64,000 nucleotides of DNA from positions 20,925 through 84,924 of IMG/VR virus record IMGVR_UViG_3300001868_000007; one strand, 5' to 3'. The DNA comes from a virus (lineage: Duplodnaviria > Caudoviricetes). The stretch's first letter is position 1, and every line of letters starts with the position of its first letter. Of this stretch, positions 32,645 through 59,201 are shown piece by piece. A program made the translations under genes and the position numbers. A model generated the notes under the pieces. The model worked only from the letters and a program-made list of their open reading frames with translations, was not told the DNA's origin and made no database searches.

Positions 32645-32974
32645 ATGAAATCATTAATTTTTACAAACGGAGCAAACATTCGTGTTGAATATGTAGTTGA
32701 TCAATTAGGAACCAACACAGGCAACATCACAGTAATGGAAATCAAAGGTTTGGATACAGCAGAAGAAGCTTTATTCCAGGGTTTTCAAAAACTTCCAACA
32801 AATCTTGCAGCCTTCAAAGCGTTCGCTACAGCGAATCACATGCAACTGACAGAAGCTGATCAAGATGCTTCAACATCGTTGATTAATGCTACCACAACGA
32901 CAACCACTGCAGCTCCAACTACTACGACCACGACTGCCGCTCCTACAACTACTACAACAACTACTGCCGGATAA
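32645..32974 (+). CDS. Putative virion protein with C-terminal poly-Thr tail
   Basis: Ends TTTTTTAAPTTTTTTAAPTTTTTTTAG. Confidence 0.65.
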   Translation: MKSLIFTNGANIRVEYVVDQLGTNTGNITVMEIKGLDTAEEALFQGFQKLPTNLAAFKAFATANHMQLTEADQDASTSLINATTTTTTAAPTTTTTTAAPTTTTTTTAG

Positions 32975-32977
32975 TAA

Positions 32978-33919
32978 ATGTTTCAGCTCACGCCAGAAAA
33001 TACGAACGAACTCCTTAACATCATTGATCGCAATCAATGCGTAATGGTAGCTAAGGAATTTGGACCCAACTTTTTAACGGAGTATGATAAATCACTTCTA
33101 AGCGATTATGGAGTGAAAGTAGATGAATTATACCAATTAGAGAACGATACTGTATTCTCGAGCTTCCATTTCGGCTTATTAAGCGATTCATTGGAAGCGA
33201 TAAGATCTGTTAGCAAAGTAACATATGACGATCTTAAAGAATACATCAAAGGTGGAAATTATATTCCACTAACTGAACAAGAGAAAGCGACCATTAATCA
33301 CATCAAAACTCAAAACCTAAGTTCATTGAAAGGGTTAGGGGGGAAGATTTTCCAAGATGTGAATGGGATACTCGACGACAACTCAAGAACAGCTCAAGAA
33401 GAATTCTTGAAGAGAGAAGTAGTTGAAGGAACACTGAAGAAACAAACAATTCGACAAATTGCTAATGAGATAGCAAGTAAAACAGGAGACTGGAGTCGAA
33501 ATTTTGATCGTATAGTTGAATATATGTCACAATCAGCATTTGAGAGTGGTAAAGCTGCAGCGATTGAAAGACAAGTAAGTGGTGATCCTCTTGTATTTAA
33601 GCGAGTTTTCAATGGTGCTTGTAAAAATTGTATCAGACTATACCTTACAAAAGGATTAGGTAGTGAGCCGAGAATCTTCAAGTTAAGTGAACTAAAAGCG
33701 AACGGAGATAATATCGGAAGAAAAACTGCAGATTGGAAGGCTACTCTAGGAAGTTTGCACCCATTTTGCAGATGTTCACTTCACCACAAAACTCCAGGAT
33801 ACGCTTTTGATCCAAAAACGAACAACTTCAGTATCTACGATGAAAAAGAAAGACCGCAACTTAAAAGAGCTCGTGAAAAAATAAAAGCGATAATAGGTGG
33901 AGTTGAGGTCTGGGTATAA
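32978..33919 (+). CDS. MuF/gp7-like head morphogenesis protein
   Basis: AC..C..LY, HPFCRC motif; located in head module. Confidence 0.8.
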   Translation: MFQLTPENTNELLNIIDRNQCVMVAKEFGPNFLTEYDKSLLSDYGVKVDELYQLENDTVFSSFHFGLLSDSLEAIRSVSKVTYDDLKEYIKGGNYIPLTEQEKATINHIKTQNLSSLKGLGGKIFQDVNGILDDNSRTAQEEFLKREVVEGTLKKQTIRQIANEIASKTGDWSRNFDRIVEYMSQSAFESGKAAAIERQVSGDPLVFKRVFNGACKNCIRLYLTKGLGSEPRIFKLSELKANGDNIGRKTADWKATLGSLHPFCRCSLHHKTPGYAFDPKTNNFSIYDEKERPQLKRAREKIKAIIGGVEVWV

Positions 33920-33941
33920 TTAATTGAACTATCTTTAGAAA

Positions 33942-34268
33942 ATGAAGCTAATCATATTCACAAGACAAGATAATATTGAAGTCAAATTTAAAACCTCTAT
34001 TAAAGATGTTAATAATTTGGATGAGAATTTTGTGATTAGTGATATCAAACTCAACACATATCTTGAACAAAGTCTTTTTTATAGTTTCGATAAGAAACAG
34101 TGGACTTTGAATGAGATGTTGTTTTTCGCAGCAAACAATTTAATGTTAGTTGAGATTTATGATGAAATAGGAATAACTTTATTAAAAACGTATGATTGTA
34201 CTTCAGGAACAGTACCCACAACAACTACCACTACTACAATTTCTACAACTACAACAACCACAGTATAA
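33942..34268 (+). CDS. Putative virion protein with C-terminal poly-Thr tail
   Basis: Ends VPTTTTTTISTTTTTTV; TATCTTTAG box at 33930. Confidence 0.6.
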   Translation: MKLIIFTRQDNIEVKFKTSIKDVNNLDENFVISDIKLNTYLEQSLFYSFDKKQWTLNEMLFFAANNLMLVEIYDEIGITLLKTYDCTSGTVPTTTTTTTISTTTTTTV

Positions 34269-35473
34269 TGTTTCAAAAAACACTAGATAGAATCGGACAA
34301 CTTCTTGCTTTAAAGAAGAATAAAACTCACTACTCTGATTGTGTGATTAGAGATGAGAAAGGTAGAATTTGTTTACTTCATCGATCATATCAAGCTGATT
34401 TTGAACCAGGTAAATGGTGTTTACCTGGAGGACATATCGAAGAAGGGGAAGAACCAATAGTTGCAGCAGCTCGCGAACTTGAAGAAGAAACTGGTTATAA
34501 AGACATACCATTGTCTTATATTGACAAGATTGATCGTAAAGATAGTGTTAGTCTGTACTACGAAGGATTCGTTTGGAGTGGAACAGCAGTTCTTCTTGAT
34601 AACGACGAGCATTATCGAATTCAATGGGTTAGATCAGAAGATCTCGATGATTATGAACTATTATGTGATCTCAAAGATATACTCGCAAAATTACCGTTGT
34701 CTCCAGTTCCTACACTTCCAGAAGTAGCTCCGGCAGGAGAAGATTTATATACTTCGTGGCAAAACAACTTCGCATCATTTGATGAAGGCAAAATCAACGA
34801 AGCAACATTCTTTAAAACTATTGAAATCCACAAAGCTGTCGCTGCTTACGAATTAGTAACCAGAGCTTTTGATAATGACGAAATCACGCCGGAAGAATTC
34901 AGTAGAGTTCATAGAGTCGAAAAAGCAGAAGGATTCGATCAAGCTCTTGAGCTTGCAAAAGAAACTGACACTGAAGTGTTGGAGGATATCGTGAAGGGTG
35001 GAAGAAAAGCTATGATCGGCGAAAAGAGAACTTTTGGTGGCAGAGAATATATTAAGACAGTCGATGGTTGGAAGTTTCATGGGAAAGGAACTGGCTCAAA
35101 AGCTCAAGAGCATGTAAAGAACAGCTCTGAGAAGAAAGAAGATAATTCTGATATTCAAGATAAATTGGATTATTTTAAAGAACTTTCACCAGAAGAGCAA
35201 ACTCAATATCATAAAACTCTTACTGAAAAATGGATTCCTGAAACAGAAGAGAGTCTTAAAAATGCTTCAGGAGCTTCGAAAGAAATCTACGAAAAACAAA
35301 GCAAATTTGAGCAACAACTTCTCTTATCGATTGAAAAAATTATAAAAGATGATAAAGTTGAAAAAATGGACACAGGATCTGTTCCTGGAGCTGAGACAGT
35401 AACTGAAAACGGAAAGTTAGTAAAAAGCGAAGATAAAGAAATAACTAAAGCAGATCATACAAAATGGCTATAA
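34268..35473 (+). CDS. Nudix hydrolase fused to the putative head-cargo module (start revised from 34196)
   Basis: Nudix box GGHIEEGEEPIVAAARELEEETG; internal DIVKGGRKAMIGEKRTFGGREYIK module; TAATG start overlap. Confidence 0.85.
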   Translation: MFQKTLDRIGQLLALKKNKTHYSDCVIRDEKGRICLLHRSYQADFEPGKWCLPGGHIEEGEEPIVAAARELEEETGYKDIPLSYIDKIDRKDSVSLYYEGFVWSGTAVLLDNDEHYRIQWVRSEDLDDYELLCDLKDILAKLPLSPVPTLPEVAPAGEDLYTSWQNNFASFDEGKINEATFFKTIEIHKAVAAYELVTRAFDNDEITPEEFSRVHRVEKAEGFDQALELAKETDTEVLEDIVKGGRKAMIGEKRTFGGREYIKTVDGWKFHGKGTGSKAQEHVKNSSEKKEDNSDIQDKLDYFKELSPEEQTQYHKTLTEKWIPETEESLKNASGASKEIYEKQSKFEQQLLLSIEKIIKDDKVEKMDTGSVPGAETVTENGKLVKSEDKEITKADHTKWL

Positions 35474-35955
35474 TATCAAATAAGGCGATCGAGTTACTCA
35501 ACTACAGAATAGCTCAAGAAGAAGCAAGCTCACGACTATACAAGTCAATGGCAGTATGGTTAGATTACAACGGTTACTCAGGAGCAGCTTCTTTATGGCA
35601 GAAATACTCCGATGAAGAATTAGTTCATGCAGGATTCTCCTACGACTATCTACTCGATTTGAACATCAAACCTACAGTACCGGTAATCGAGAAACCAACT
35701 GGAGAATTCAGAGATTTGCCCCAGATCATAGCTGCCTCTTTTCAGCACGAAGTTGAAATTACAAATCAATGTAAAGTTTTAGCGAAGAGTGTAGCAGATG
35801 AAGACGATTACATGACACTAACCTTAGCTCAGAAATACCTTTCAGAACAGGTGGATGAGCTCAAAAAAACGCAATTCTTAGTAGACCAACTCAACATCTT
35901 TGGAACAGATAAAATCGCTCTACAATTACTCGATACTAAATTAGGAGAGCTATAA
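35464..35955 (+). CDS. ftn: Non-heme ferritin
   Basis: QEEASSRLY.SMA.W......GAA......EE..HA, HE..IT, YL.EQVDE ferroxidase pattern. Confidence 0.88.
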   Translation: MAIISNKAIELLNYRIAQEEASSRLYKSMAVWLDYNGYSGAASLWQKYSDEELVHAGFSYDYLLDLNIKPTVPVIEKPTGEFRDLPQIIAASFQHEVEITNQCKVLAKSVADEDDYMTLTLAQKYLSEQVDELKKTQFLVDQLNIFGTDKIALQLLDTKLGEL

Positions 35956-35956
35956 C

Positions 35957-37627
35957 ATGAACACAACAAGCAACAAATTTAATTTCTTCGTACCGTTAAG
36001 CTTTGAAAAAGGAACAGACGGTAAGGGAGCGTCAGTTGTAAAGATAAAAGGTGTTGCTTCTTCAGAAGCGGAAGACTCTGATGGAGAGACATTAATTCCA
36101 GCAGGATTTGATTTTGGACCACTACTGAAGACAGGATTCTTAAATTGGAATCATCAAGCGGGAAAATCAGCGAAAGCAATTTGTGGAGAACCAACAAGCG
36201 CTAAAATCATCAACAACGGAAAAGATTTCTACATTGAAGGATTTCTCTATCCAAACGCTCAAGGTAAAGAGGTAGCAGATTTAGCAGAGACTCTTGAGAT
36301 GTATTCTCCAAACAGACGTCTTGGATTCTCTATCGAAGGACAAGCAACTGAAAAAGATCCAATGAATGAAAAAAGGATTACTAAAGCTCGCATCACTGGA
36401 GTAGCAATTACACAGAGTCCAAAAAATCCAAACACACTCATGTCAATCATCAAAGGAGAAACAGATGATCTCTATATTGAAGATGAAGAGTTAACTGACG
36501 AAGAAAAGAAAAAACAAGAAGAAGAAAAAAAGAAAAAAGAAGGTACGACTGAGAAGGCCATGGATACTGAGGCGATGACCCCAGCTATGCCTGAGTCAGT
36601 CGAACATAAAGAAAAGCCCACTGTTGGGTTATCGTTAAACAAAAGTGAAGTTTACATTCAAATCTACGATCGGTATACAACTGACGTAATCAAAGCAAAA
36701 GAAATTTTCAATTTTATATCAAACGTCAACGAAAAACTTTTCAATATGACAAAAGGTGAAAAAATAACTGAAGAAACTCTTCAGAAATCTTTCGAGATTC
36801 TCGATGGACTTGTAAAAGGTAAAGAAGACACAGAAGAAGGTGTTAACAAGATCAAAGAAAAAGAAGAGGAAGAAGATGAAGAAAAAACTGAACCTGCAAC
36901 TTCTGGTAAAGAAGTAGCTGAAGAAGAAACTGAAGAAGTAAAAAAAGCGAAAGCTTGCACCTCAATGGCGAAAAGTTTATTGTCTACCGGTATGGCTCAA
37001 GGCGACGTTGTGAAAGCAATGACTGCTGTAGGAGTGGATCTAACAATGGCAGAAACATCTTGTCAAGCTTGTATTTCTCAAGCAGAAGCTTTGAAAGAAA
37101 ACGGTGGAACTATAACAACTGAAACAGCTCCTATCGTTAAGGGAGAAGAGTCAGTTATTTTAGAATCAACTCCAGATCCAGTTCTTGACCTTGTAAAAGG
37201 TTTACAAAACGGTTTAGGAGAAGGATTCAAAGCTATTGGCGTAATTCTGAAATCAGTAGTTGATGAAAGAAACGATTTGAAAGAAACTCTCAACACTCTT
37301 CAAAAAGGTTTCGATGATCTTTCAGATGACTTCGAAAAACTTGCAGAAACTCCAGCAGCTCCAAAATCAAAACGTACAGTCAAGTCAATCGAACGTTTTG
37401 AAAAAGGAGAAGAAGAAGGCAACGAAGATATGTATTGTATTAATAACGCAGCAGACGTAAAACGTTTAGGTGACCGTATCATGGGTCATGTCGAAATTTT
37501 GAAATCAAAAGGACAAGAAGATTTACAACTTGAAAAAGCAATAGCTGATCTTGAGATCAGTAAATCAACCGACTATACAGCAATAGCTCCTAAATTAAGA
37601 GCATTGAACATCACATTAGTGAAGTAA
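35957..37627 (+). CDS. Prohead protease with C-terminal scaffold region
   Basis: IKGVAS...D.DGE.LIP.G, NWNH, GFSIEG, VAIT..P.NP.T; acidic/helical C-terminus; directly upstream of MCP. Confidence 0.88.
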   Translation: MNTTSNKFNFFVPLSFEKGTDGKGASVVKIKGVASSEAEDSDGETLIPAGFDFGPLLKTGFLNWNHQAGKSAKAICGEPTSAKIINNGKDFYIEGFLYPNAQGKEVADLAETLEMYSPNRRLGFSIEGQATEKDPMNEKRITKARITGVAITQSPKNPNTLMSIIKGETDDLYIEDEELTDEEKKKQEEEKKKKEGTTEKAMDTEAMTPAMPESVEHKEKPTVGLSLNKSEVYIQIYDRYTTDVIKAKEIFNFISNVNEKLFNMTKGEKITEETLQKSFEILDGLVKGKEDTEEGVNKIKEKEEEEDEEKTEPATSGKEVAEEETEEVKKAKACTSMAKSLLSTGMAQGDVVKAMTAVGVDLTMAETSCQACISQAEALKENGGTITTETAPIVKGEESVILESTPDPVLDLVKGLQNGLGEGFKAIGVILKSVVDERNDLKETLNTLQKGFDDLSDDFEKLAETPAAPKSKRTVKSIERFEKGEEEGNEDMYCINNAADVKRLGDRIMGHVEILKSKGQEDLQLEKAIADLEISKSTDYTAIAPKLRALNITLVK

Positions 37628-37687
37628 TCAAATCGTGAATCGCATTTAGAGATCGTTAATCGCAAAATTACAAACAAAAATACAATC

Positions 37688-39154
37688 ATGGTAGGATTAA
37701 ATGACTATGTTGATGGTTTTGGTGGAACCGAGCAAGAAGGTCAATTAGAGTTGCAAAAAGCAATGTCTGCAGGCCAAATTACCGGTAGAGAAACCACAGG
37801 TTTATCATTAACTCAAGAACCTCTGAAAGCAGAGTCTCTTGAAAAAACACTGAAATTACTTGAATTTCGGACAACGGATATCAAATTATTCAACGCTATT
37901 CCTAAGCTAACAGCTTATAACACTGTTGAAGAATTCTTGCAATTATCAAGTTACGGTTCTCAACGCGGAGGTTTCTATAATGAAGGCGAACTTTCAGATG
38001 TAGAAGATTCTAAATATATCCGTCGGTCTGAGTTGATAAAATACATGCAGGTTACCGGTGAAGTAACAATGCAGGCTCAAATGGTACGTTCGTACGTTGA
38101 TGCAATGCGTAAGGAAGTTGAAAACAAAATGATGTGGATCATGCGTTTAGCCAACACAACTTTGACAAAAGGTGACGCTGACATTATTCCTCAGGAATTC
38201 AACTCTATCTACAAACAACACGCAAGTATTGGCGCAACACAAGATTTCTTGTATCCAACTTTCGAAGCTTACTACAACAGTGGTACAGTAGTTGATTTAC
38301 GCGGAAAGAGTTTGAAACAATCTGATGTTGAAAATGGCGCTATCAAAGTAGATGAAAACTACGGTACAATCTCTCACTTGGCTGCTCCAACAACTGTTCT
38401 TTCAGCTTTAGCTCAAGACTATTTCGAAACTCAACGCATCATCCAAAACGGTACTGGATTTGAAGGTAAAATTGGAGTTGTTCCAAAAGTGATCTCAACA
38501 ACTATGGGAGACGCAGCTTTGATGGGTGACAAATTTATGAAGGCAGATCCTTCAAAAAATTCAGCTACTCCTTCAACTTCTACGAAAGCTCCTTCTGCTC
38601 CAACGATCTCTACAGTTGCAACTGCTGCTGACGCGTTATCGAAATATGTAACCGGTGAATTGGGTGACTGTTTCTATGCAGTATCTGCAATCAATCGTTA
38701 CGGTGAATCAAACTTAGCTATCCACGCTACTCCAATCACATTGGCTGCTGGTTATTCTGTGGATTTGACTTTTGTTGCTGGTGCTGGATCAAACGTAACT
38801 AACGGTTATGTGATCTTCCGCACGAAAATCACTACTGCTACTACTCCTGCAGGTTTAGAATTTTATCCTATCTTCCGAGTTGGCTCTGCAAATCTTTCTG
38901 CAGGATTCAATAACGGAGCTCCCGGTACAATTCGCGACGCTGGATATTTCTTACCAAACACTGAACAAGCATTCTTGACTCAGATTGATGAAGAAGTTGT
39001 AGCATTCAAACAATTGGCTCCAATCTCGAAATTGGACTTAGCTGTATTGTCTATGAGCCGCAGATTTATTACATTTTTATTCGGAACGACCCAGGTGTAT
39101 GCGCCAAAAAAGATCATACGTTACATCAACGTAGGGAAAACTTTAACAGCTTAA
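37688..39154 (+). CDS. Major capsid protein
   Basis: L..ESLE..L, FN.IPK..AYNTVEEF, F.E.E.....DS...R: SPO1/K-type MCP; followed by strong terminator. Confidence 0.92.
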   Translation: MVGLNDYVDGFGGTEQEGQLELQKAMSAGQITGRETTGLSLTQEPLKAESLEKTLKLLEFRTTDIKLFNAIPKLTAYNTVEEFLQLSSYGSQRGGFYNEGELSDVEDSKYIRRSELIKYMQVTGEVTMQAQMVRSYVDAMRKEVENKMMWIMRLANTTLTKGDADIIPQEFNSIYKQHASIGATQDFLYPTFEAYYNSGTVVDLRGKSLKQSDVENGAIKVDENYGTISHLAAPTTVLSALAQDYFETQRIIQNGTGFEGKIGVVPKVISTTMGDAALMGDKFMKADPSKNSATPSTSTKAPSAPTISTVATAADALSKYVTGELGDCFYAVSAINRYGESNLAIHATPITLAAGYSVDLTFVAGAGSNVTNGYVIFRTKITTATTPAGLEFYPIFRVGSANLSAGFNNGAPGTIRDAGYFLPNTEQAFLTQIDEEVVAFKQLAPISKLDLAVLSMSRRFITFLFGTTQVYAPKKIIRYINVGKTLTA

Positions 39155-39175
39155 TTGTTGTTTAAATATATAATT

Positions 39176-39212
39176 AAGAAGCGTCGCCTATATTGTGCGA
39201 CGCTTCTTTTGC
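39176..39212 (+). terminator. Rho-independent terminator after MCP
   Basis: AAGAAGCGTCGC/GCGACGCTTCTT stem followed by TT. Confidence 0.85.
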
Positions 39213-39262
39213 TTTAAGGAAATAGTTTACTGATATTTACGCAAATTATAAACATTTTAAAG

Positions 39263-39724
39263 ATGGTATTATTAAAAACAACACTGCAACACAAATGGGG
39301 TAGAAACGCCTGCCTTCCAATCATTGGAGATGTAACTATCTCAGAAGAAGGAACTATCGAAGTAGAATCTGAAGAGATTGCTCAACAGATTGAAGATCTT
39401 GAAATTGGTTTCAGTATAGCTGAAGAGGTAGAAATAACTACTACCACAACCGAAGCGACAACAACAACTACCACTACCGAGTTGATCGTAGAGAAAGTTG
39501 AAAAAGACGAACTCAATCCTGAAAGCGAAACCGAACTTCATAAAGAAAGTCAAGGCGACGAAACCGATCTAATCTCTCAACTTGAAAAAGAAATCTTCTT
39601 TGCTTCGCTTGAAGAAAAGAAGCTTGAAGAATTGAAAGAGTTAGCAAAAGACTTTCCTGGTAAAGAATGGAGAGCTTTGAAAAAAGAAGATTTGATCATT
39701 TATTTGAAAGAAAAATTAGCTTAA
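39263..39724 (+). CDS. Hypothetical virion protein with internal poly-Thr tract
   Basis: EITTTTTEATTTTTTTE; C-terminal Rho-N-like L..K.L.ELKELAK...LKK.DLI..L. Confidence 0.65.
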   Translation: MVLLKTTLQHKWGRNACLPIIGDVTISEEGTIEVESEEIAQQIEDLEIGFSIAEEVEITTTTTEATTTTTTTELIVEKVEKDELNPESETELHKESQGDETDLISQLEKEIFFASLEEKKLEELKELAKDFPGKEWRALKKEDLIIYLKEKLA

Positions 39725-39730
39725 TACAAC

Positions 39731-40579: not shown

Positions 40580-40581
40580 TT

Positions 40582-41061
40582 ATGAATGAATTTCAAAAAG
40601 CTCAGAGCGAGCGTATTTTAGGTTGTTACGGCGAAAGTTCGGAAACTCTTTTAGAAAAAGGTGGAGAAGGTGCTCGTGGCGGAAAGGTTATCGGTCACAC
40701 AAAATCAGGTAAACCAGTATATGCAAATCTAAAAGCTGACCACGAGAATTATAAACATTTCACTTCAACAGATCATAAAGAAGCTGCAAGCCTTCACAAT
40801 GACGCTAAGCAATTCCTTCACCCTCGTGAAAACGCAGGAGAGATGGATAAGCACCGTAGTGCATCAGAGAGTCACATTGAAACAAGTCATCGCCCCTACA
40901 AGAATCATTCAAAAGAAGAATTACACAAACTTGCAGATAAGAAAGCTGGAAGGGATCGTGCTGACGCAGTAGATGAATTAGCTAATCGCTACAGAGAGTC
41001 TCATCCAGGACAGACAGCTAACACATCGGCTTTAGATAGATCTGATCCCAAAACACATTAA
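40582..41061 (+). CDS. Putative internal head protein (leader + GGKVIGHTKSGKPVY + His-rich module)
   Basis: MNEFQKAQSERILGCYGE...LEKG; start revised from 40570. Confidence 0.7.
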   Translation: MNEFQKAQSERILGCYGESSETLLEKGGEGARGGKVIGHTKSGKPVYANLKADHENYKHFTSTDHKEAASLHNDAKQFLHPRENAGEMDKHRSASESHIETSHRPYKNHSKEELHKLADKKAGRDRADAVDELANRYRESHPGQTANTSALDRSDPKTH

Positions 41062-41064
41062 CCA

Positions 41065-41826: not shown

Positions 41827-41827
41827 T

Positions 41828-43011: not shown

Positions 43012-43743
43012 ATGCAGACATTAATCGTTCCAGAAACTATTATACTTGATTCTCTTGAAAAAGCGTTACAATTTGTTCGTACTGATTACGCAACGAATAT
43101 AGCTGCAAATACAGAACAAGATTCATATCTTTATCGAATTCTTCAGGGAGTAGGAATAGAGCGATATACTTACTTCACTCAAGGAAAGAAAGTATTTCTT
43201 GCAGCAGAGGATGATCCTCGCTTATTGAATATTGATCTTGTTTACAACATGAATGTTAACAAGGTACCAAGCGTTTACATAGCTTTAGCTAACGAACAAA
43301 ACGGTCAAAACGGATTAGGGTTAGATGAAGGATATCAACAGGATCTTGAGAATGAAGACGGAACAGCTCTATCAGTCTTTACTCGCAGAAAAAATACTTC
43401 ATATAACATAATGATTACAAGCGACAATTCAAACGAAGTCGTTATGATTTATCATTTCTTGTACGCTTTATTAACATCACTTACTCCTCACATGAATATG
43501 CGAGGATTAGAAAATATTTCAATTGGAGGACAAGATCTGCAACTAAGAGGAGATTTGATTCCTAAGAGCATTTTCATGCGAGCTCTAGCGATCAATCTTC
43601 AGTACGAGATATCAGTTCCTGATCTAAGTAGAAATCCAACTGCTGGAGATATATTCTTTTCTGGAAGTCCAGTAGAGGAAATTACTCCAACTACTACGAC
43701 TACAACAATATCAGTCACCACAACCACAACAACTATAATTTAA
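43012..43743 (+). CDS. Tail terminator-like protein with C-terminal poly-Thr tail
   Basis: Synteny upstream of sheath; ends ITPTTTTTTISVTTTTTTII. Confidence 0.6.
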   Translation: MQTLIVPETIILDSLEKALQFVRTDYATNIAANTEQDSYLYRILQGVGIERYTYFTQGKKVFLAAEDDPRLLNIDLVYNMNVNKVPSVYIALANEQNGQNGLGLDEGYQQDLENEDGTALSVFTRRKNTSYNIMITSDNSNEVVMIYHFLYALLTSLTPHMNMRGLENISIGGQDLQLRGDLIPKSIFMRALAINLQYEISVPDLSRNPTAGDIFFSGSPVEEITPTTTTTTISVTTTTTTII

Positions 43744-43748
43744 GAAAT

Positions 43749-43964
43749 ATGGCAAAGCAAAAAGAAGATCAACCTTTTTCTGAGGGTCAAGAAGGAACAA
43801 CTACTACTACAACCAAAGCTCCTAAAAAAATAGACCTACAAAATTATTTGGATAGTTTATCTTTAATGAGAGCGGAACGAACGTATTACGAAAGGACTTA
43901 TGGTCAAGTTCGAATCTCGAAGACCTATGAGGAGTGGAAAAAAGAAATCAAGATCGTTCATTAA
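43749..43964 (+). CDS. Small protein upstream of sheath with poly-Thr tract
   Basis: EGTTTTTTKAP; equivalent small gene precedes the sheath in K-like phages. Confidence 0.55.
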   Translation: MAKQKEDQPFSEGQEGTTTTTTKAPKKIDLQNYLDSLSLMRAERTYYERTYGQVRISKTYEEWKKEIKIVH

Positions 43965-50043: not shown

Positions 50044-50061
50044 TCAAAACAAAAGTAGATT

Positions 50062-53000
50062 GTGTCAGAAAATAAAACTTTAGTATACGAGGTTACGCAC
50101 AGCTCTCCAGAATTCAAAACTGTAGCTGATTATATACAAGACCCAACTTCTCCTGCACACGAATATATAGGAGATATGGACTCGTTTCTTTCTGTATTAC
50201 ATAAAGATGGGAAAACCACCAATAGACAAGTTATTGAAGCAGGATACAAAAAAAAGTGGGAAAAAGCAAAATATACACCTAACAAATCTGCCAATCAATT
50301 ATTTCTTCCTATTGGGACTAAATTAGCTATAGAAACAAACAAAAACGATCGAGGACTTGGATTGCTTACTCAAGGAATCGAGGTAGTAAGCAACGATATT
50401 CCTGTTTTTAAAGCGAGAGCTCTCGCTGAACTCGAAAGCGATAAAAGATATAGACTTATTTCTAAGCCTATTGACGGGAAACTTCAAGGCAAAATGAACG
50501 AAAGGTATCCAGATATGACTGTCTGGATGTGGTGTAGAGCTCTCTCGAACACTCAAGAGAACGAAGGGCAGATTGTCAACATTACTCCCTTTATTCAAAA
50601 AGTAAGTACAAATGTTGATAAAAATGGTGGAAATTTTCAACTTACTCTCCCTCCATTAGTATGCGAATTAGGAGAGAATAAAAAATGGATAATTAAGAAA
50701 AAAAGTTTACAGAATTATCAAACTTCTAAAAACAACTCTCTTCAAGGAGATGGATACGTAGCTGAGGCAAGTCTTTTCAAAATAGGTAAAGATGGAGGAC
50801 TGAAGAGAAATGAGCTCCTTTTCCACAATATTATTAGTTCAAACGATATGGTTTGGATTAGATTCGAAACATTAGAGATTGAAAAAGAACAAAGAGCTAA
50901 AGATAATGTTGATTTTTATATAGATAAATCCAATCTCGCTGGGAGAATTTACGATATGATTGGATTAGTTGATAGCAACATTCAAGTTGTTAATCCTCAA
51001 GATAATGATGTTACTATTCAAGTAAACGGTAGAGATTTAAGTAAACTCTTTATTGAGGATGGTTCGTATTTCTACGCTTTAGAAATGTCACAAGGACAAT
51101 TGAGTTTTGCAGGAGGATCTACACAACAAAACAGTTTGATGCAGAGAGTGTTCTCAGATAATGCTCTACAATATTTCAATTCATACTTCAATAACTCTAT
51201 TGAAAACGTATTAAAGTTCGTTATACAGCAGCTCTCTACCATCAAAGTGGTACCAGATAATTTATTTACTTCCTATGGAAACAGGAGAAATAAAAAATTC
51301 AACGAAGGAGCGCAATCAAAACAACTTAAAGCTCAGAGAGATAGTTTACAAGATATTGAAAAGAAAGCTAAAGAAAGTATCAAAGCTCTTCGAATCGAAG
51401 TTCAATTAACTGAGTCTCAACCCTCTACTGAAAGCAGAGAAATAGATACTATCTGGTATAAATTACTTGATTTTATGAGTGCTTTACGAACTCAAAAAGT
51501 AAGAGAAAATAACGGAACCAATACGACTGGATGGAAATCTTTCGCTTATACAACTTCCTCAGGGAAGGAAGATATAATAGCTAACACTCTTCCTCAATAT
51601 TTCTTCAGCAATCTCCATATTACACTGTATTACACAAAAGCTCAAGTTTTTAAAAAAGTAGAACAGAGTTTATTTAACGACATAGATAAGTATCTAGATC
51701 TGAAAGAATCTCAACCTCAAAATCAGGAACTTTGGACAGAAGATTTAGCTAATGGTGTTTGGCAAATAATAAAATTAGTAATCGACGATGGCGTAACTCA
51801 AAGAAGAATCGTTGATAGCTCTATGTCATCAGCTAATGGATCTCTATTGAATTTTATCAGAAAAGTATGTCAAGAACCCTTCGTTGAGTTCTACATGGAT
51901 ACATACGGCGACACATATAACTTGATAGTTAGAAAGCCACCTTACGATAGAAGTGGAGTAGTGTCGATGTTAAACGGTACAACTAACGTTGAAGGTGATA
52001 GTAGTAAAGAGACTAAGATAACATCAACAGTCATCGATATTGAACCAGAAGATGTTCTTCGTGAAGAATTATCTTACAACGATGGGAACGTTGCTACATG
52101 GTATCACTTGATACCTCAAGCGAATTTTGTTGGCAACTCATCAACTTGGTCTTTATCTTATTTGCCTGCTGTATTTCTTCAAGAATACGCCGATATCTGG
52201 GGATCGAGACCTATGCAATGCATTCATAATTACATGCCTTACATGCTTCTTAATCCTTCAGAAACAACTTTAGATATTTGCGAAAAACAAGCCTTTGAAG
52301 ATTTAAAATATATAGTTGAGTGCAACGCTTATTTACCATTCACTCGCAGAGGAACACTTTCTCTCAATGGAGATCGTCGATTGAAGTATGGAAATATCGT
52401 TCGCTATAAAAGCACAGGAGAAATCTTCTTCATTGATCACGTGCAACAGAATTTCTCTATAAGCGAGAACTCTATCGATCGAACTTCAACTGTTCAAGTA
52501 AGTCGAGGAATGAAAGAGGTTTTGATCAATGGAGTAGCTGTTGTAGACGAGATCTTAGGAGAATCTGGATCAACCTTTAGCTATTTCGATATAGTTAACA
52601 CAAACCTCAATACATCTGTAACTAAAGAGTACACTAAAACAACAACAGAGAAGGTTCAAGTAGGGAGTAAAAAAGAGACTCAAATCAAATCAGAAATTGA
52701 TAATCTTTTCACAAATGTCAACAAATACAAGGGATATAAATGGGTCTTAGGTACTTCAGGAGAAGGAGAGAAAATTGATTGCAGCGGCTTTGTTTCTAAG
52801 GTTCTCCAGTTATCAGGAGTAAAGATCGCTCGCACCACAGCAGAAGAAATTATGAAGAAATCAAAAGATTTGAAACCTGTTGAATTCTTTGACGCTACAA
52901 GCTTACAAGAGGGAGATGTGATTGGATTAGGTACTCAAAAAGATAAAGGAAAGAAAATTTATGGAATAGATCACATAGCCATAGTAGTGAAGAATTCGTC

Positions 53001-53388
53001 CACAGGGAAGTTAGAGTTAGCTGAGAGCGCAAGTAAAGTAGGAGTTAGATCTCGACCTTTAGCTGAGATTCTTCCTCATTATAACGAAATATCTCTTCGT
53101 AAATACGTAGGTAATTTTAGAACACCTATTGAAAACACAATAGTAGAGACACCTATATATGAGACGAGAATAATTACTACAAAGAAAAAAGATATTGATA
53201 GATCGAAAGTTTTTAGTAACTTTAGAGTCTTTAAGAGTTGTTTTAATTTCTTTTTAAGAAGATTAATGAATGATGACCGATTAGTTACTAATTTACTTCA
53301 CGAAGCAAGTGTAACCAATAAAAACATCAATCGCTTCTCAGATGAAGAAATCAAAATGTACAAAGATATATTTAAAATCAATCAATAA
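50062..53388 (+). CDS. Baseplate hub protein with inserted NlpC/P60 peptidase domain
   Basis: V.GRDLSK.F, PF.E.Y.DT hub motifs; Y.W..G....IDCSGFV...DHIAIV NlpC/P60 Cys-His dyad. Confidence 0.85.
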   Translation: MSENKTLVYEVTHSSPEFKTVADYIQDPTSPAHEYIGDMDSFLSVLHKDGKTTNRQVIEAGYKKKWEKAKYTPNKSANQLFLPIGTKLAIETNKNDRGLGLLTQGIEVVSNDIPVFKARALAELESDKRYRLISKPIDGKLQGKMNERYPDMTVWMWCRALSNTQENEGQIVNITPFIQKVSTNVDKNGGNFQLTLPPLVCELGENKKWIIKKKSLQNYQTSKNNSLQGDGYVAEASLFKIGKDGGLKRNELLFHNIISSNDMVWIRFETLEIEKEQRAKDNVDFYIDKSNLAGRIYDMIGLVDSNIQVVNPQDNDVTIQVNGRDLSKLFIEDGSYFYALEMSQGQLSFAGGSTQQNSLMQRVFSDNALQYFNSYFNNSIENVLKFVIQQLSTIKVVPDNLFTSYGNRRNKKFNEGAQSKQLKAQRDSLQDIEKKAKESIKALRIEVQLTESQPSTESREIDTIWYKLLDFMSALRTQKVRENNGTNTTGWKSFAYTTSSGKEDIIANTLPQYFFSNLHITLYYTKAQVFKKVEQSLFNDIDKYLDLKESQPQNQELWTEDLANGVWQIIKLVIDDGVTQRRIVDSSMSSANGSLLNFIRKVCQEPFVEFYMDTYGDTYNLIVRKPPYDRSGVVSMLNGTTNVEGDSSKETKITSTVIDIEPEDVLREELSYNDGNVATWYHLIPQANFVGNSSTWSLSYLPAVFLQEYADIWGSRPMQCIHNYMPYMLLNPSETTLDICEKQAFEDLKYIVECNAYLPFTRRGTLSLNGDRRLKYGNIVRYKSTGEIFFIDHVQQNFSISENSIDRTSTVQVSRGMKEVLINGVAVVDEILGESGSTFSYFDIVNTNLNTSVTKEYTKTTTEKVQVGSKKETQIKSEIDNLFTNVNKYKGYKWVLGTSGEGEKIDCSGFVSKVLQLSGVKIARTTAEEIMKKSKDLKPVEFFDATSLQEGDVIGLGTQKDKGKKIYGIDHIAIVVKNSSTGKLELAESASKVGVRSRPLAEILPHYNEISLRKYVGNFRTPIENTIVETPIYETRIITTKKKDIDRSKVFSNFRVFKSCFNFFLRRLMNDDRLVTNLLHEASVTNKNINRFSDEEIKMYKDIFKINQ

Positions 53389-53409
53389 AACTTAATTAAT
53401 ATATAATTA

Positions 53410-53844
53410 TGAACGATTTTATATCTCATCAAGCAGAAAAGATATTAGCGTGTTACACAGATAATTCGTTAAATTCATGTATAAATAAAGCCGAAGAAAA
53501 ATGATCTTGAAAAGAGTGGCGAAGGCTCCAAAGGTGGCAAAATCATAGGACATACTAAATCCGGGAAACCCATTTACAGCAGCACATATCCTGATGAAAG
53601 TTCACATCTTCATTTTTCAAGAGAAGATCTCACAGATGCAATTCAAGCATATAAAGATTATGATCATTCTTTAATGGTTGAATACGATAATCACGGAAAA
53701 GCAATGAAACAAGCTCTTAAAGAGAAAGATAAAAAATCTCACGCTAAAAGTCAACGAGATAGAGCAGAAGTCAATCGTGAACGAGATTTTCAATGGATGT
53801 TCAAGCAAAAACACGAAGAAACTCTTAAGAATAAAAAGGATTAA
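53410..53844 (+). pseudogene. Leader-family protein split by a frameshift in an A5 run (53496-53501)
   Basis: Frame 1 MNDFISHQAEKILACY...KAEEK*; other frame NDLEKSGEGSKGGKIIGHTKSGKPIY...KD* ending in a TAATG overlap with the next gene; missed by ORF track. Confidence 0.8.
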
Positions 53845-54689
53845 TGAATAACGAATTCAACTCAGTTGGGAAAACTGGCCAATCAGGAGAGCAGTGGTCT
53901 GTAGGAATAGCCTATATAGCTCTTCCTTCAGATGTAGAGAGAGAGATTTATATTAGAGAGTGTTATCAAAACAGTCGTGTCTCAATTTGGTCTGAAGACG
54001 CTGGTTTTCTCAATCGCGTACCAATAGACTCAGATACGATCAACTTCATTGAATTCCCCGAAGTCTTAGAAAAATTCGGAACTGCAGTAGTTTTCGTAAC
54101 TGAACCAATACATAAGCAGCCTATCATCATTGGAAGGTTGCCTAAAACAGATGAATTAGGAGAGTTGAAAGAGAATCAATTCAAAATCAAAAGGAAACTT
54201 GGTAACAAAATTGTTGAAATATCAGGTTCACCAGAAAAGGGAGTTCTTAATTTAATTGTAAACGCAGAGAGTGAAGGTGGCTCCATCAATATCTCTCTTG
54301 TTAACGTAAATGATAACGGAGAACTAAGTTTAAGTGTAGCTGGCGACGTTAAAATAGATGCAACAGGCAATATAGAGTTTCTTCAAAAGAAAAGGTTCTA
54401 TGTAAATACAGTAGGAGAAGATGGAAAGGATGATAGTGAAGCATCTTATGAGCAAACTAGTGAAGAACACAGATTTGGTGGGAAGAAGATAATTGTAAAC
54501 GAAGGAGAAGATCCAATGGTTCTCGGCAATGCATTAAACAAAATTCTTGGACAATTTATAGATAAGGTAGCTGCGATCACTGTTACAACAGTGTTAGGAG
54601 TATCTCCTATTCTCAATGCACCAGATGTTCTTCTTCTTAAAAAAGATCTCAAAAATATTCTTTCTAGCGAAGGATTCTTAAAACAATAA
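53844..54689 (+). CDS. Baseplate spike / gpV-gp45-like protein
   Basis: OB-fold-like FP......GT.VV.V....QP.IIG; beta-repeat C-terminus; PMVLG. Confidence 0.65.
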   Translation: MNNEFNSVGKTGQSGEQWSVGIAYIALPSDVEREIYIRECYQNSRVSIWSEDAGFLNRVPIDSDTINFIEFPEVLEKFGTAVVFVTEPIHKQPIIIGRLPKTDELGELKENQFKIKRKLGNKIVEISGSPEKGVLNLIVNAESEGGSINISLVNVNDNGELSLSVAGDVKIDATGNIEFLQKKRFYVNTVGEDGKDDSEASYEQTSEEHRFGGKKIIVNEGEDPMVLGNALNKILGQFIDKVAAITVTTVLGVSPILNAPDVLLLKKDLKNILSSEGFLKQ

Positions 54690-54691
54690 TT

Positions 54692-55411
54692 ATGGCAAAC
54701 GATATTGTAGATTACGCTAGTCTTTTAGGAGGAGTTGGTAGAGCTGTTTTAAATATTCAATTTCCTAAAGAATTTGAGTTATATATGTGCGCTTTGGAGC
54801 TTATTGATCAAGAAGGAACAACTTTGAGATACTTCATTTTCCCAGTGATGCCTTCAAGCATAGAGGAAACGCAACCTCAGATCACCAATATCAAGAAATC
54901 TTTAGCGGGAATAACTGTTTTATCTAATCCAACTTTTGTACCTGGAGACGTTTCTTTGTCGGGAAATTTTGGTCGGAAATTTAGAATTTTATTAGGAAAT
55001 AATTATGAAGATCTGATTTCGTCTTTTAAACGCAAAGACAGTAGAGAGAAAGCTTTCAAAACTCAAGTATTTGATTCAAGAATCAAAACTGGGTATGGTT
55101 GCTGTAAAATTCTTGAAGAGATTGTTGCTGAGTCGAAAATAGTAGATGAGAAAGGTATTCGAAGATTAATTTTCTATAATCCTGCTTTGGGGAATAATTA
55201 CTTAGTTAAGCCACTAAATTTGAAGTTCTCTATGTCTCAAGAAAGCAATATGATATGGAATTACTCATTAACTCTCAAAACCGTTGCTTCTCTTGAATCT
55301 TTCAATAGTACCTTAGAAACAAAACAAAGCGAAGAAAGATTAGTAACGACAGGATATGCTCAAAAACAAATGGGAAGAGTGTTGAGTGCACTAACTTCAA
55401 TTTTAAGATAA
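54692..55411 (+). CDS. Baseplate/tube initiator-like protein
   Basis: F.FPV.PSS, I.LSG.FG, L.FYN, M.WNYSL.L; synteny. Confidence 0.6.
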   Translation: MANDIVDYASLLGGVGRAVLNIQFPKEFELYMCALELIDQEGTTLRYFIFPVMPSSIEETQPQITNIKKSLAGITVLSNPTFVPGDVSLSGNFGRKFRILLGNNYEDLISSFKRKDSREKAFKTQVFDSRIKTGYGCCKILEEIVAESKIVDEKGIRRLIFYNPALGNNYLVKPLNLKFSMSQESNMIWNYSLTLKTVASLESFNSTLETKQSEERLVTTGYAQKQMGRVLSALTSILR

Positions 55412-55413
55412 AC

Positions 55414-56349
55414 ATGCAACTAACCAAAGAAATACTAAGAGAATTTAAAAAGATAACTTCTAAAGACGTTGAGTTATTTCTACTCAAAGCTCTAAGCTTC
55501 TTCTCAATTGAATATCAAGAAATAGTTTCTTATTACTCAGGAGAATCAACCAATATATCTAGTAAGCCTTTCGAAGTTTTTGAAAAAATAAAAAAAGAAA
55601 GAGATGAGATGTTTTCGACTTTTCAATTACACAGCAAACAATTAAATAATGCAAAATGGTGGTTGTTGCTAGAGCAAATAGAAGAGATTGACAGTAGACT
55701 TAAAACGTTAGATAATATCAATAAGTGGAGTAGGTCTTCGTTAACCAAAGTAGGATTCAGTTCTGATTTATCTGTACAATATACTTTGAAACAGAATCAA
55801 AGTCTAGAAAAAGTGGTTTCAGATGTTTTAAATTCTTCGAATAGCGAAGAATGGGTGAATTTAGCTATTCAAAACGACTTAACTGAAGAACAATACTCAC
55901 TTGAAGGAGGAGTCGATCTTCAGCTTAAATTCCCTCAAGTGAATAGAGGAATCAGAGTCGAGTCTGTAGTAGACATAATGATAAGCAAGAGTATCTACGG
56001 TAAAGATTTGTCGAAAAAATTACAATTCTCCTCCACTCAAGAAGACTTAAAAGTGTTAGGATATGACGAGACGATTACTCAGAGTGTAGATATTTTATCG
56101 CAACTCAAAAAAGAAGACAATCCAGATTTTCCAAACCAAGGATTACAATCGACTATAGCTGTAGGAGCGAATCGAGCAACGTTGAATTTCCCGATCATTC
56201 AAAGGCAGATGAAAGAAACTTTTGCTACTGACGATACATTGAAGGAATTTATTTTGACAGGATTGACTATCGAGCAAGATAATTTATCAATGAGTTATGA
56301 GGTACAGACAAGGTTGAGTGAGACGTATGACGGACAGGTTATTGTTTAA
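55414..56349 (+). CDS. Baseplate wedge protein (LysM-like + gp25-like)
   Basis: Y.LKQ.QSLE.V...W..LA..NDL LysM-like segment; P.FP.QG C-terminal domain. Confidence 0.6.
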   Translation: MQLTKEILREFKKITSKDVELFLLKALSFFSIEYQEIVSYYSGESTNISSKPFEVFEKIKKERDEMFSTFQLHSKQLNNAKWWLLLEQIEEIDSRLKTLDNINKWSRSSLTKVGFSSDLSVQYTLKQNQSLEKVVSDVLNSSNSEEWVNLAIQNDLTEEQYSLEGGVDLQLKFPQVNRGIRVESVVDIMISKSIYGKDLSKKLQFSSTQEDLKVLGYDETITQSVDILSQLKKEDNPDFPNQGLQSTIAVGANRATLNFPIIQRQMKETFATDDTLKEFILTGLTIEQDNLSMSYEVQTRLSETYDGQVIV

Positions 56350-56379
56350 TTTAGTATTTTTACAATTCAAAGCAAAACT

Positions 56380-57591
56380 ATGGCACTAGACATCAAACCA
56401 TCAACCTCGATTGAGAGAAAACTTCTATTTCTCGAAACCCTACTTAATAGTACAAATAAAGTTTCGAAAATATCTGATAATTCAGTGTTATCGGGAGTAG
56501 CTGGTGGAGTTGCAAAGGTAGCAGGTAAAGCAGAAAAAGATATCGTTTTAGCTGTTTCTCAATTATTTCCCGATTCAGCTTTTGCTGATCAATTAGATCA
56601 TGTAGCGCTAAATTTTGGAGTTGCTTCTCGATTTGGAGCTATTGGATCATCTACTTATTTAAGAATTGTAGCTAATCCTGGCACAATTTATTTAACTAAT
56701 ACTCACGTCTTTGTTGCTACTGGAGGAGTTCATTTTGAATTAGAAGCAGATTTGACGATAGGTAGTTTAGGATTCACTTATACAAAGGTTCGTAGTACAA
56801 TTTCTGGAGTCGCAACTAATGTAGATTCGTTGTCAATTTCTCAAGTATCTCCTAAACCATCTGGACACATTAGCGTTGTAAATGAGTATCAAGCAGTTGG
56901 AGGTAGAGATATTGAAGACGACAGTACTTTTAGAGTAAGAATTAAAGATGGCGCGAATATTCTTGCGCGTGGCACTACAGCTATGCTTGAGCAAGTATTT
57001 ATCAATATCAATCCTAAAGTGCTTAAAGTTTTTAATCAAGGTTCTAACTCGAACGGTAAGATTATTTTATCGATAGCGACTCAAAATGGTGTAGATTTAA
57101 CGCAAACAGAATTAGATGAGTTATTGAGCAAATCTGCACAATATTTTTCATTAACAGAAAATAAGTATTTTGGATATAGTTATTATGGAATCTTGTTAAA
57201 GAATATCTCATATCAACCTATTGATATTTCTTTTAGAGTAGATATAGATAACTCTTATAATTCTGATCAAATCAGAATAGCTATTCAAACAAATATCTCT
57301 AAATACTTAGATTTTAGATTTTTTGATTCATCTACTCAGAAAGTAGAGTGGGATAATCTGCTTGAGATAGTCAAATCAACTCCAGGCATCAAATATGTTA
57401 TGGATCAATACTTTTATCCAAGAGTAGATCTTTCTATTGATAATTTTACATTACCAAGAGTGAGAAGTTTTTTGATGCTAAATTTGCAAGGTCAAGTAAT
57501 TAACAATTATAATGGAACATTATCTCCTGTTTATTATCCAAATATTATAGATAAATCTTACCATCAAACTGTTTTAAATAACATTTTTTAA
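56380..57591 (+). CDS. Baseplate J-like protein
   Basis: A...QLD.VA.NFG..R, GG.D.EDD..FR.RI, T...LE. Confidence 0.88.
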   Translation: MALDIKPSTSIERKLLFLETLLNSTNKVSKISDNSVLSGVAGGVAKVAGKAEKDIVLAVSQLFPDSAFADQLDHVALNFGVASRFGAIGSSTYLRIVANPGTIYLTNTHVFVATGGVHFELEADLTIGSLGFTYTKVRSTISGVATNVDSLSISQVSPKPSGHISVVNEYQAVGGRDIEDDSTFRVRIKDGANILARGTTAMLEQVFININPKVLKVFNQGSNSNGKIILSIATQNGVDLTQTELDELLSKSAQYFSLTENKYFGYSYYGILLKNISYQPIDISFRVDIDNSYNSDQIRIAIQTNISKYLDFRFFDSSTQKVEWDNLLEIVKSTPGIKYVMDQYFYPRVDLSIDNFTLPRVRSFLMLNLQGQVINNYNGTLSPVYYPNIIDKSYHQTVLNNIF

Positions 57592-59201
57592 TGACGATAT
57601 CAAACGATAAAATAAGGATCGAAGGTAACTCTTTAGTTATACGCATGCAGCCAGCAACAGGATTGTTAGCTTTAACTTCGTTTATCTCGACTGAAGTAGG
57701 AGTAACAGGAACAGCTTATTTTGAGAAGTACTTCAGATATGCGTTAAACGGAATAATTTTCAACGATTGGCAACCTTTAACTTTATTAGCGATCACAAAT
57801 ATAATTGTTTCATCTACAGACGATTTATTAATAGAATTAAGCTATCAAAAAGTGGATATAACTGAGGGAGAAAGTTCATTGGGAGTTTTATCGGTTGTAA
57901 TAGAAGGAACAAAAGATACATCTATCTCTCAAAACTTCTTTGATAAAACAGTTTTTAAAGAGTTTTTCGAAAGCGACAGTATTGAGATCTTAGGTTGGTA
58001 TTTGAATGTTTTAGACAAACTTTATCAAAAAGGTATAGTCCCCAATTATATTGATCGATTAAACGATTTCGATAGTCCTGACGATTTTTTAGAGTTTTGG
58101 AAATCAATAGCTAAATTTTTCTCATATTACGTAATATATGCTCGTCAATTTCAGAAATTCTACGAAAGCGAATCTTTATTAGATGAGTACGTTAGCGAGC
58201 GAGGATTGAGGACCTCTATTGAAAATACTTTAAGTGAACTCAATCTTTTGATGACTAGTTTTTATCAACAAATAGCTCATCGAGGTACAAATCATATTCA
58301 AGATCTAGTTGAAAGTGGAGCTGCAATTGATGGCGAATTATTGCGATTGATATGGTACAAACCTGAGGACGAATTTCTTTTTAATTTACACAAAAAAGAA
58401 CACTTCGGATGGAATTTAAGTAATTCCTCACCTTTGTATAGAGGATTATATTTGAATGATAACGCAAATAAATACGGAGACAAGAGTTTCGAACCTCAAG
58501 ATATATCTTTATATCCAACTGGAGGAGTTATCGTAGAAGACGAAAGCAAACAAGTTCTATACACAACCAGCACATTAGGTTCATCTGATTATAAGATTAA
58601 AGTGTCACCCGAACTTGATTATGAATTTTCGTTTTTAATCAAAAAAGAGGCTGCAGCTACTTTAACGGTGAGACTAGAAGCTTACGATAAAGATTTAACT
58701 CTTCTTGATTTAGTATCTCATAAAGACGGCTCCACTAAAAACAATTTCTTCACCACCATAGGATTGAGTAGAGATGACAAATATCTACTTATTAAACTAT
58801 TTCTCTTCAACAAAGATAAAAAAGTCTTCGCTGATGATATAACTAACATTCATCAGGGAGAGAATTTAATTTTAGTTGAAAACGTCAATTGGATAACTCC
58901 CTTTATAACGATTGAAGGAGGTTCTGCTAAAATTTATGGAGTTAGATTTATGCCTTTAAACACTCCTTATTCACATGGTTTACTTCAAGTAAATAATTGG
59001 ATTTCATGCTGGTTGAAGAATCGAAATAATTCTTTACAGATCACATCTATTGAAAACTTTATTAAGAAATATCTCATTCCTTACAACAGTCATCTCTCTA
59101 TTGTAGTTATAGAGGAAGGTGTTACTAGTAGTGGAGAAGAGATCGTAACTACGACGACAACTACTGCAGCCACCACTACTACAACTACAACCACAATATA
59201 A
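57591..59201 (+). CDS. Baseplate wedge (gpI/gp7-like) protein with C-terminal poly-Thr tail
   Basis: Follows J; RGT, KYLIPY..H; ends IVTTTTTTAATTTTTTTI. Confidence 0.7.
   Translation: MTISNDKIRIEGNSLVIRMQPATGLLALTSFISTEVGVTGTAYFEKYFRYALNGIIFNDWQPLTLLAITNIIVSSTDDLLIELSYQKVDITEGESSLGVLSVVIEGTKDTSISQNFFDKTVFKEFFESDSIEILGWYLNVLDKLYQKGIVPNYIDRLNDFDSPDDFLEFWKSIAKFFSYYVIYARQFQKFYESESLLDEYVSERGLRTSIENTLSELNLLMTSFYQQIAHRGTNHIQDLVESGAAIDGELLRLIWYKPEDEFLFNLHKKEHFGWNLSNSSPLYRGLYLNDNANKYGDKSFEPQDISLYPTGGVIVEDESKQVLYTTSTLGSSDYKIKVSPELDYEFSFLIKKEAAATLTVRLEAYDKDLTLLDLVSHKDGSTKNNFFTTIGLSRDDKYLLIKLFLFNKDKKVFADDITNIHQGENLILVENVNWITPFITIEGGSAKIYGVRFMPLNTPYSHGLLQVNNWISCWLKNRNNSLQITSIENFIKKYLIPYNSHLSIVVIEEGVTSSGEEIVTTTTTTAATTTTTTTTI

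Follow-up and report, generated by a model that had tools for sequence, protein, structure and literature searches.

What are runs of pure threonine (Thr) doing on six proteins of the virion module of a bacteriophage? The question is raised by a 64,000-nucleotide stretch, here called the window, which comprises bases 20925-84924 of the linear 84,924-bp IMG/VR record IMGVR_UViG_3300001868_000007 (Caudoviricetes; CheckV completeness 82%), has a G+C content of ~35% and carries almost all of its genes on the + strand. An earlier note on this DNA had described six poly-Thr tracts as candidate acceptor tags for a phage glycosyltransferase (GT) or kinase. The present analysis confirms these poly-Thr tags, which exceed chance by a wide margin and occur in the virion module only. 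We read them, at a probability of about 0.45, as O-glycosylation acceptor tags.

Pure threonine runs in six virion-module proteins

The six tracts that had been described all lie in frame in + strand open reading frames (ORFs), which we designate A to F, and together comprise 12 Thr runs of 5-8 residues. They form C-terminal tails in A, B, D and F, a linker in C and an N-proximal run in E. Specifically, protein A (109 residues, 32645-32974) ends in T6AAPT6AAPT7AG (DNA 32891-32965), and its paralogue B (108 residues, 33942-34268; ~35% identity) ends in T7IST6V (DNA 34218-34262). Protein C (153 residues, 39263-39724), encoded directly 3' of the major capsid protein (MCP) gene, has an internal T5EAT7 (DNA 39437-39478) in a variable linker. 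Protein D (243 residues, 43012-43743) has the tail TPT6ISVT6II (DNA 43684-43734); it is a conserved virion protein that is encoded two genes upstream of a putative sheath gene and gave no PHROG, Pfam or PDB-profile match. Protein E (71 residues, 43749-43964) carries T6 at residues 17-22 (DNA 43797-43814). Protein F (536 residues, 57591-59201) has the tail T6AAT8I (DNA 59148-59195), and its gene comes after 56380-57591, a Baseplate_J-like gene with a phrog_6 match to a baseplate wedge protein. Four tracts have the run lengths first assigned to them, with B reading T7IST6 instead of T6IST6 and the second run of F having eight Thr instead of seven; the labels 'neck/tail terminator' and 'baseplate' given to some of these genes had been drawn from gene order alone.

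Runs of at least five Thr would be expected 0.024 times from composition and 0.16 times (maximum 3) from 2000 within-protein shuffles, against the 12 observed. Apart from one D5, the proteins encoded in the 85-kb record contain no further homopolymer of at least five residues. At the DNA level the coding strand has 16 occurrences of the pattern ACNx6, whereas neither the opposite strand nor a reversed control pattern yields any. The four Thr codons are mixed inside the runs in proportions about as outside them, and because of this mixing in roughly genomic proportions the tracts are not a DNA microsatellite. Tracts are absent from the first 32.6 kb of the window and from the 21 kb of record that precede it. 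This agrees with the previous statement that early genes lack such tracts, although the part regarded as early also includes structural genes, namely those for the terminase (13286-15169), a tail fibre (18282-19178) and a leucine-rich repeat (LRR) protein (19178-20350). The last two, a tail-fibre-like gene and a BspA-type LRR gene with a Listeria-Bacteroides repeat, lie within the segment 17963-20350, which is distant from the main tail module; their products contain 11-13% Thr and no pure runs.

The RecA protein of the phage is nearest to the RecA proteins of Cryomorphaceae, other Flavobacteriales and Cytophagales, and because of this proximity to Bacteroidota RecA proteins we take the host to be a member of the Bacteroidota (genus not settled). 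In the five Bacteroidota genomes closest by RecA, ACNx6 occurs 1-5 times per 2.2-7.2 Mb, which is not above control. Since these RecA-nearest genomes sit at control level, the Thr tracts are a property of the phage lineage and not of the proteins of the host phylum. The absence of a poly-Thr excess in these genomes also argues against glycosylation or binding of the tracts by the host instead of by a phage enzyme, an explanation to which we give a slim chance. Bacteroidota O-glycosylation acts on exported proteins outside the cytoplasm and virions assemble inside it, which likewise counts against the host. On the other side, the Bacteroidota do possess a general O-glycosylation system (PMC12871550), and no GT common to this phage and its nearest cultured relative, MA9V-3, was found in the available sequence. 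The sequon of that host system, D-(S/T)-(A/I/L/V/M/T) (PMC12871550), is however missing from all six tracts, as the earlier note had recognised.

The runs are portable additions to conserved cores

Comparison with relatives was made chiefly with L004, a relative with 94% MCP identity, and with Chryseobacterium phage MA9V-3, whose host species is Chryseobacterium indologenes. An AlphaFold2 (AF2) model of protein A shows a small alpha/beta N-domain (residues 1-80) with a core predicted local distance difference test (pLDDT) score of ~70-86 (73 for the whole model) followed by a tail of pLDDT 53-56 that has no secondary structure and is predicted to be disordered. When the A tail is compared with that of L004, 10 codons are identical, 14 differ synonymously and none differs non-synonymously, as against 47, 18 and 17 in the folded core; the probability that all 14 tail changes are synonymous by chance is ~7e-4 (hypergeometric, on tail versus core counts). 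This result indicates that Thr itself is kept by purifying selection, and together with the mixed codons it supports the previous proposal that selection acts at the level of the protein. Such strict Thr retention is unusual for a disordered tail.

Every homologue 65-86% identical to A terminates in 2 or 3 Thr runs with AAP or AEP spacers between them. In a further homologue, in L006 (1339-1884), an immunoglobulin (Ig)/cadherin-like domain stands in place of the tail. Other phages likewise combine the 80-residue N-domain of A and B with unrelated C-terminal modules, one example being a 495-residue BFVD 'cellulase' of an uncultured siphovirus, which has a large C-terminal module. The C-termini of the B homologues in L004 and MA9V-3 differ from that of B and are not Thr tails. 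More than 30 related contigs encode a homologue of D that stops near residue 222, before the tail, and the F homologue of MA9V-3 aligns up to residue 509, after which a Cys-rich extension replaces the tail. The linker of C reads TSTTTEAPVT6VEET6 in L004 and T5SST6EAPSST7 in MA9V-3, and it is without Thr runs in L002, L003, L005 and L008. The counterpart at the E position in MA9V-3 begins MSTTTTTTA. MA9V-3 has five Thr-tract proteins overall, at the A, C and E positions plus two tail-region proteins whose counterparts here are not tagged, and in two of its proteins the Thr tract is an inter-domain linker. Tract-bearing proteins of MA9V-3 are encoded, among other places, at L039 8913-9275, 17969-18424, 21581-21778 and 36190-36927. 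No tracts are present in the parts covered of L002, L003 and L005-L008. We conclude that the Thr runs are portable disordered tags added onto conserved cores, in the virion module only. The portability that had been proposed is thus upheld by homologues of D, F and B that lack the tail, by the tagging of different virion proteins in different relatives and by variation in the number of repeats on A.

The same comparisons bear on the main rival explanation, in which the tracts are unmodified disordered hydrophilic tails or linkers that act as spacers or 'bristles' (affecting solubility, domain spacing or surface properties), and the GT serves another purpose. We regard this explanation as somewhat unlikely. 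It is favored by the predicted disorder of the A tail, by the use of the tract as an inter-domain linker in C and in the two MA9V-3 proteins, and by the acidic tails that some A homologues have at the same place. Plain spacers normally drift, however, yet Thr is retained through all 14 codon changes of the A tail. The runs are moreover pure Thr and not mixed polar residues, four of the tracts are terminal with nothing to space, and one format recurs on unrelated proteins of a single module, points that count against this explanation as well.

A different role for A and B would be that of capsid-internal 'cargo' with tails acting inside the head, in loading or DNA contact, which we consider improbable. 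The fusion of the A N-domain to unrelated C-terminal modules is compatible with this role, as is the C-terminus of protein C (ELKELAKDFPGKEWRALKKEDLIIYLKEKL), which may resemble a Rho_N/HeH-type DNA-binding motif. Against it, the N-domain plus Ig-like module in L006 has the layout of known outer decoration proteins, and D and F are tail-side proteins that cannot be head cargo. Fold searches with protein A gave nothing usable for its role, the best PDB match (Z 4.7) being to an unrelated chain.

The phage encodes a protein with a GT-A fold

The enzyme candidate of the earlier note is a 212-residue protein encoded at 3975-4613 (+ strand), which has no Pfam (E<=0.01), PHROG or PDB-sequence match. 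In the ESM Atlas it adjoins a cluster named 'putative glycosyltransferase' (score 0.97, 204 shared features) and has template modelling (TM) scores of 0.66-0.85 to GT2-type models. Its AF2 model, built from a 56-sequence alignment, has a pLDDT of 96.2 and a predicted TM score (pTM) of 0.92. With this model Foldseek returned at least 500 PDB matches at E<=1e-3, and among the matches listed all are GT-A glycosyltransferases, the best including a Leptospira GT, the metal-independent BoGT6a, SpsA and TarP. An exhaustive structural scan (VIA-align) gave Z 12-14.3 to GlyE, LgtC, AgtA, glycogenin, TarP, the PBCV-1 capsid glycosyltransferase A64R and GalNAc-T1, several of which, GlyE, AgtA, glycogenin, A64R and GalNAc-T1 among them, glycosylate proteins. 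The GT proposed in the earlier note is borne out, as a GT-A fold, by the Atlas, the AF2 model, Foldseek and the structural scan; the assignment is made from a model and at the level of fold only, with activity predicted.

Among the 56 sequences, D37 does not vary and D36 hardly does; both sit where strand 31-36 ends, so that the nucleotide-binding acidic site of GT-A enzymes is present. The alignment also keeps G67-D68, E147 and Y188. A full HMMER search for homologues of 3975-4613 yielded 365 cluster representatives at E<=1e-3, and longer members of the family fuse the domain to Glyco_transf_9, Glycos_transf_2, Glyco_transf_25, methyltransferase or Erv1/Alr domains. A Pfam search of all ORFs of at least 70 residues in the 85 kb gave no GT or kinase among the matches listed (in one batch, 25 of 30 families), and PHROG profiles identified no GT or kinase among 20 unknown proteins of the phage.

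The kinase candidate, a 150-residue protein encoded at 2103-2555 (+ strand), is less well defined. Were it a Ser/Thr kinase that phosphorylates the tracts, charged tails would result, and the acidic tails of some A homologues could then be read as phospho-mimics; we consider this highly improbable. In the Atlas, the named clusters closest to the protein are Phage_T7_kinase (61% of members; score 0.91; 171 shared features) and Kinase-PolyVal, with a score that lies within the range sometimes reached by chance. The targets of T7-type kinases are host proteins, acted on early, and not proteins of the virion. The candidate has no Pfam match and no PDB sequence match, falls into PHROG 4301, a family of unknown function, and is absent from the tagged MA9V-3. 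The earlier suggestion of a kinase is therefore left with a weak Atlas lead to T7-type kinases.

Does the GT-A protein go with the runs?

Several observations weigh against the glycosylation of the runs, and in particular against 3975-4613 as the enzyme. The complete genome of the tagged MA9V-3 has no member of the 3975-4613 family (hmmsearch E>10; genome search empty; hhalign <=7%), and no Pfam GT was found among 20 unexplained MA9V-3 proteins. Among nine other IMG/VR viral records that have a GT-family member, a poly-Thr cluster is present in only one (G001), and three that are 90-100% complete (G007, G009 and G011) have no T6 run at all. The gene for 3975-4613 is one of the early genes, 28 kb away from the closest tag, and its product could have a different substrate. 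The MCP and tube proteins are untagged, and in two more distant homologues of A the tail is acidic and not made of Thr. The fold of 3975-4613 is also near that of sugar nucleotidyltransferases (Z 12.5-13.3), and the DxD motif after strand 4 is missing, with K89-I-S91-R92-R93 (K-x-S-R-R), invariant or nearly so, found there. By analogy with metal-independent GT-A enzymes, these basic residues may replace the metal.

The remaining comparisons add the following. Two of the nine records have two isolated Thr runs each. The untagged relatives G003-G005 lack a GT-family member, but these are only 35-56% complete. The 'phages' collection contained no homologue of 3975-4613, and a scan of metagenome contigs with alignment A8 gave no match. 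Overall, the co-occurrence of GT and tags that had been anticipated is not seen: MA9V-3 has the tags but not the GT, G007, G009 and G011 have the GT but no T6 run, and G001 has both; no link between 3975-4613 and the tracts emerged. We therefore consider it unlikely that 3975-4613 is the enzyme that modifies the tags. Tracts without this GT family in MA9V-3, and a GT family that is often without Thr runs, are both as would be expected of unmodified tails.

Two gene arrangements speak in favor of glycosylation all the same. The first is in G001 (IMGVR_UViG_3300005617_000004), a complete, unrelated phage of 109.5 kb and 65% G+C with a member of the GT family. Its segment L076 6011-9279 begins with the gene for a Cys-rich 252-residue protein that has a Thr/Ser tract of ~45 residues. 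Two ORFs come directly 3' of this gene; read by eye, the sequence of one shows GT2-like motifs (DDDD) and that of the other a GT-B-like motif. In the second arrangement, MA9V-3 encodes a 301-residue protein (record 63714-64619; L042 13714-14619, - strand) with an 'FYHDSDIIF' motif directly after a 428-residue Thr-tract protein in the tail-fibre region. This protein has no Pfam match and gave 4% by hhalign to the 3975-4613 family; judged from its motif, it may be another GT. By synteny its region falls in a stretch that is absent from the record of the window. In addition, G002, a 59% G+C provirus fragment, has a 375-residue ORF that is largely serine (L075 15234-16361) 6 kb from its GT-family member, which could be an alternative-frame artefact.

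Proposed role of the threonine runs

O-glycosylation is the best single reading of the Thr runs because it accommodates their strict Thr retention and their format, the encoding of a GT-fold enzyme by the phage, the gene order in G001 and the example of the mycobacteriophages (PMC12363180). Proteins of the virion module would be O-glycosylated on their Thr tags in the cytoplasm of the infected cell, before or during assembly, by a phage-encoded glycosyltransferase using nucleotide-sugars of the host. The enzyme would be either 3975-4613 or the product of a gene in the ~18 kb that appear to be absent from the record. The tags would sit on the outside of the particle, where a sugar coat might protect against proteases, reduce sticking or aggregation, or bind polysaccharide matrices. 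Mucus binding and immune evasion, both put forward in the earlier note, are speculation; evasion of animal immunity is made less likely by the nearest cultured relative, a wastewater phage with a plant-root bacterium as its host.

A more general form of this reading, which we hold tentatively, is that Bacteroidota phages and many others O-glycosylate parts of their particles, and that a portable pure-Thr tag is written by phage-encoded, unannotated GTs, one of which would be a GT-A family with K-x-S-R-R. To our knowledge, phage virion glycosylation has been shown experimentally only in a few mycobacteriophages. Our literature search found no paper that links poly-threonine tags with phage glycosylation or describes poly-Thr tags on phage particles. 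If the reading is true, a simple portable Thr tag would make glycosylated phages recognisable from sequence alone, would bear on how stable phages are, how they adsorb and how antibodies recognise them, and would serve as a natural handle by which particles could be decorated. Since tags are also present in the cultured MA9V-3, the question is open to bench testing now. With 365 or more cluster representatives, and lacking both a Pfam model and a DxD motif, the GT-A family merits its own characterisation.

Genome context and relatives

The MCP gene (37688-39154, + strand; phrog_752, E 5e-60) has a reading frame without any run of four or more Thr, and its product is 70% identical to the MCP of MA9V-3 and 38% identical to the MCPs of Bacteroides DAC phages. 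MA9V-3 is a cultured 103-kb myovirus from wastewater whose host is a plant-root bacterium, and neither glycosylation nor threonine is mentioned in the paper that describes it (PMC13120357).

An identical copy of protein A was found in a protein collection on a contig of 103,092 bp, which also encodes an identical copy of 3975-4613, and the length of this contig suggests that ~18 kb of genome, comprising the tail-fibre end, is absent from the record. By synteny with MA9V-3 the absent part would lie between the truncated tail-fibre ORF at the end of the window and the N-terminal part of dnaE. Scans of viral contigs with protein F and the two last ORFs revealed no close relative.

Between A and B lies a + strand gene for a minor head protein (32978-33919), which we presume to be MuF/SPP1 gp7-like on account of its HPFCRC motif. 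It has no Pfam or PHROG match; considered as a hidden GT, it was rejected on the MuF/gp7-like reading of this motif. Also inside the head module, a NUDIX-domain protein (E 1.6e-21) is encoded at 34196-35473, upstream of ORF 35957-37627, which is probably the portal gene. The large terminase subunit (13286-15169) matches PHROG profiles in two separate stretches, 20-174 and 316-623, and intein/HINT Pfam models were matched by some protein in the same batch. Because of this split match and the intein/HINT match in the batch, the terminase probably carries an intein.

The part of the record before the window (L037 4001-12410) contains genes for GTP cyclohydrolase I and PTPS/QueD and a radical-SAM QueE-like gene, which point to 7-deazaguanine DNA modification. 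Near these are genes for ThyX, RecA, a B12-type ribonucleotide reductase, DNA ligase, an acyl-carrier protein and MazG. Finally, ARAGORN identified at 20700-20775 a tRNA whose anticodon has four bases (taaa) and at 20896-21273 a transfer-messenger RNA (tmRNA), and the annotation of MA9V-3 likewise includes a tmRNA.

Comparison with known systems

When 3975-4613 is compared with characterised GT-A enzymes, it resembles BoGT6a (4ayl; Foldseek E 1e-7, TMq 0.58) and PBCV-1 A64R (2p6w; Z 13.2) and shares with them the 'DD' after strand 2. It differs in its identity of at most 17% among the matches listed, in belonging to no Pfam family and in having K-x-S-R-R in place of DxD.

As to the tagged proteins, T4 Hoc and T5 pb10 are decoration proteins that bind the capsid through an N-domain and display a C-terminal module. 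Proteins A and B are similar in that a small conserved N-domain is combined with a variable C-terminus (Thr tail, acidic tail, Ig-like domain or large module); the best PDB match of A, obtained with its pLDDT 73 model, was the unrelated chain noted above, and no solved decoration protein was matched.

The general O-glycosylation of Bacteroidota has in common with the tracts the host phylum and Thr as acceptor. In contrast, its sequon occurs in 0 of the 6 tracts, where the residues before the runs are NA, VP, EI, TP, EG and IV and never Asp. Mucin-like or PT-type linkers are alike in having short clustered Ser/Thr stretches in disordered regions, and in streptococcal membrane proteins Ser/Thr-rich disordered regions act as O-glycan acceptors (PMC12041528). 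Those linkers are extracytoplasmic and served by membrane-associated machinery, whereas the phage tags are pure Thr with 2-3-residue spacers on particles assembled in the cytoplasm.

The closest precedent is the virion O-glycosylation of the mycobacteriophages Che8, Corndog and Myrna, reportedly the subject of Freeman et al. 2023. The glycans there have been demonstrated, whereas here glycosylation is predicted from the sequence. In these phages capsid and tail-tube proteins are glycosylated by the phages' own GTs, as summarised in PMC12363180. Their modification is on the major capsid and tail-tube proteins, whereas here the MCP and other large structural ORFs have no tag, and pure Thr runs are found on six minor or accessory proteins of a phage with a Bacteroidota host and an unannotated GT without DxD. 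The two systems are nevertheless alike in that a GT-fold enzyme is phage-encoded (here at the level of fold), in that virion proteins have extra acceptor-like segments, and in that the modification here would likewise be cytoplasmic and without a host sequon.

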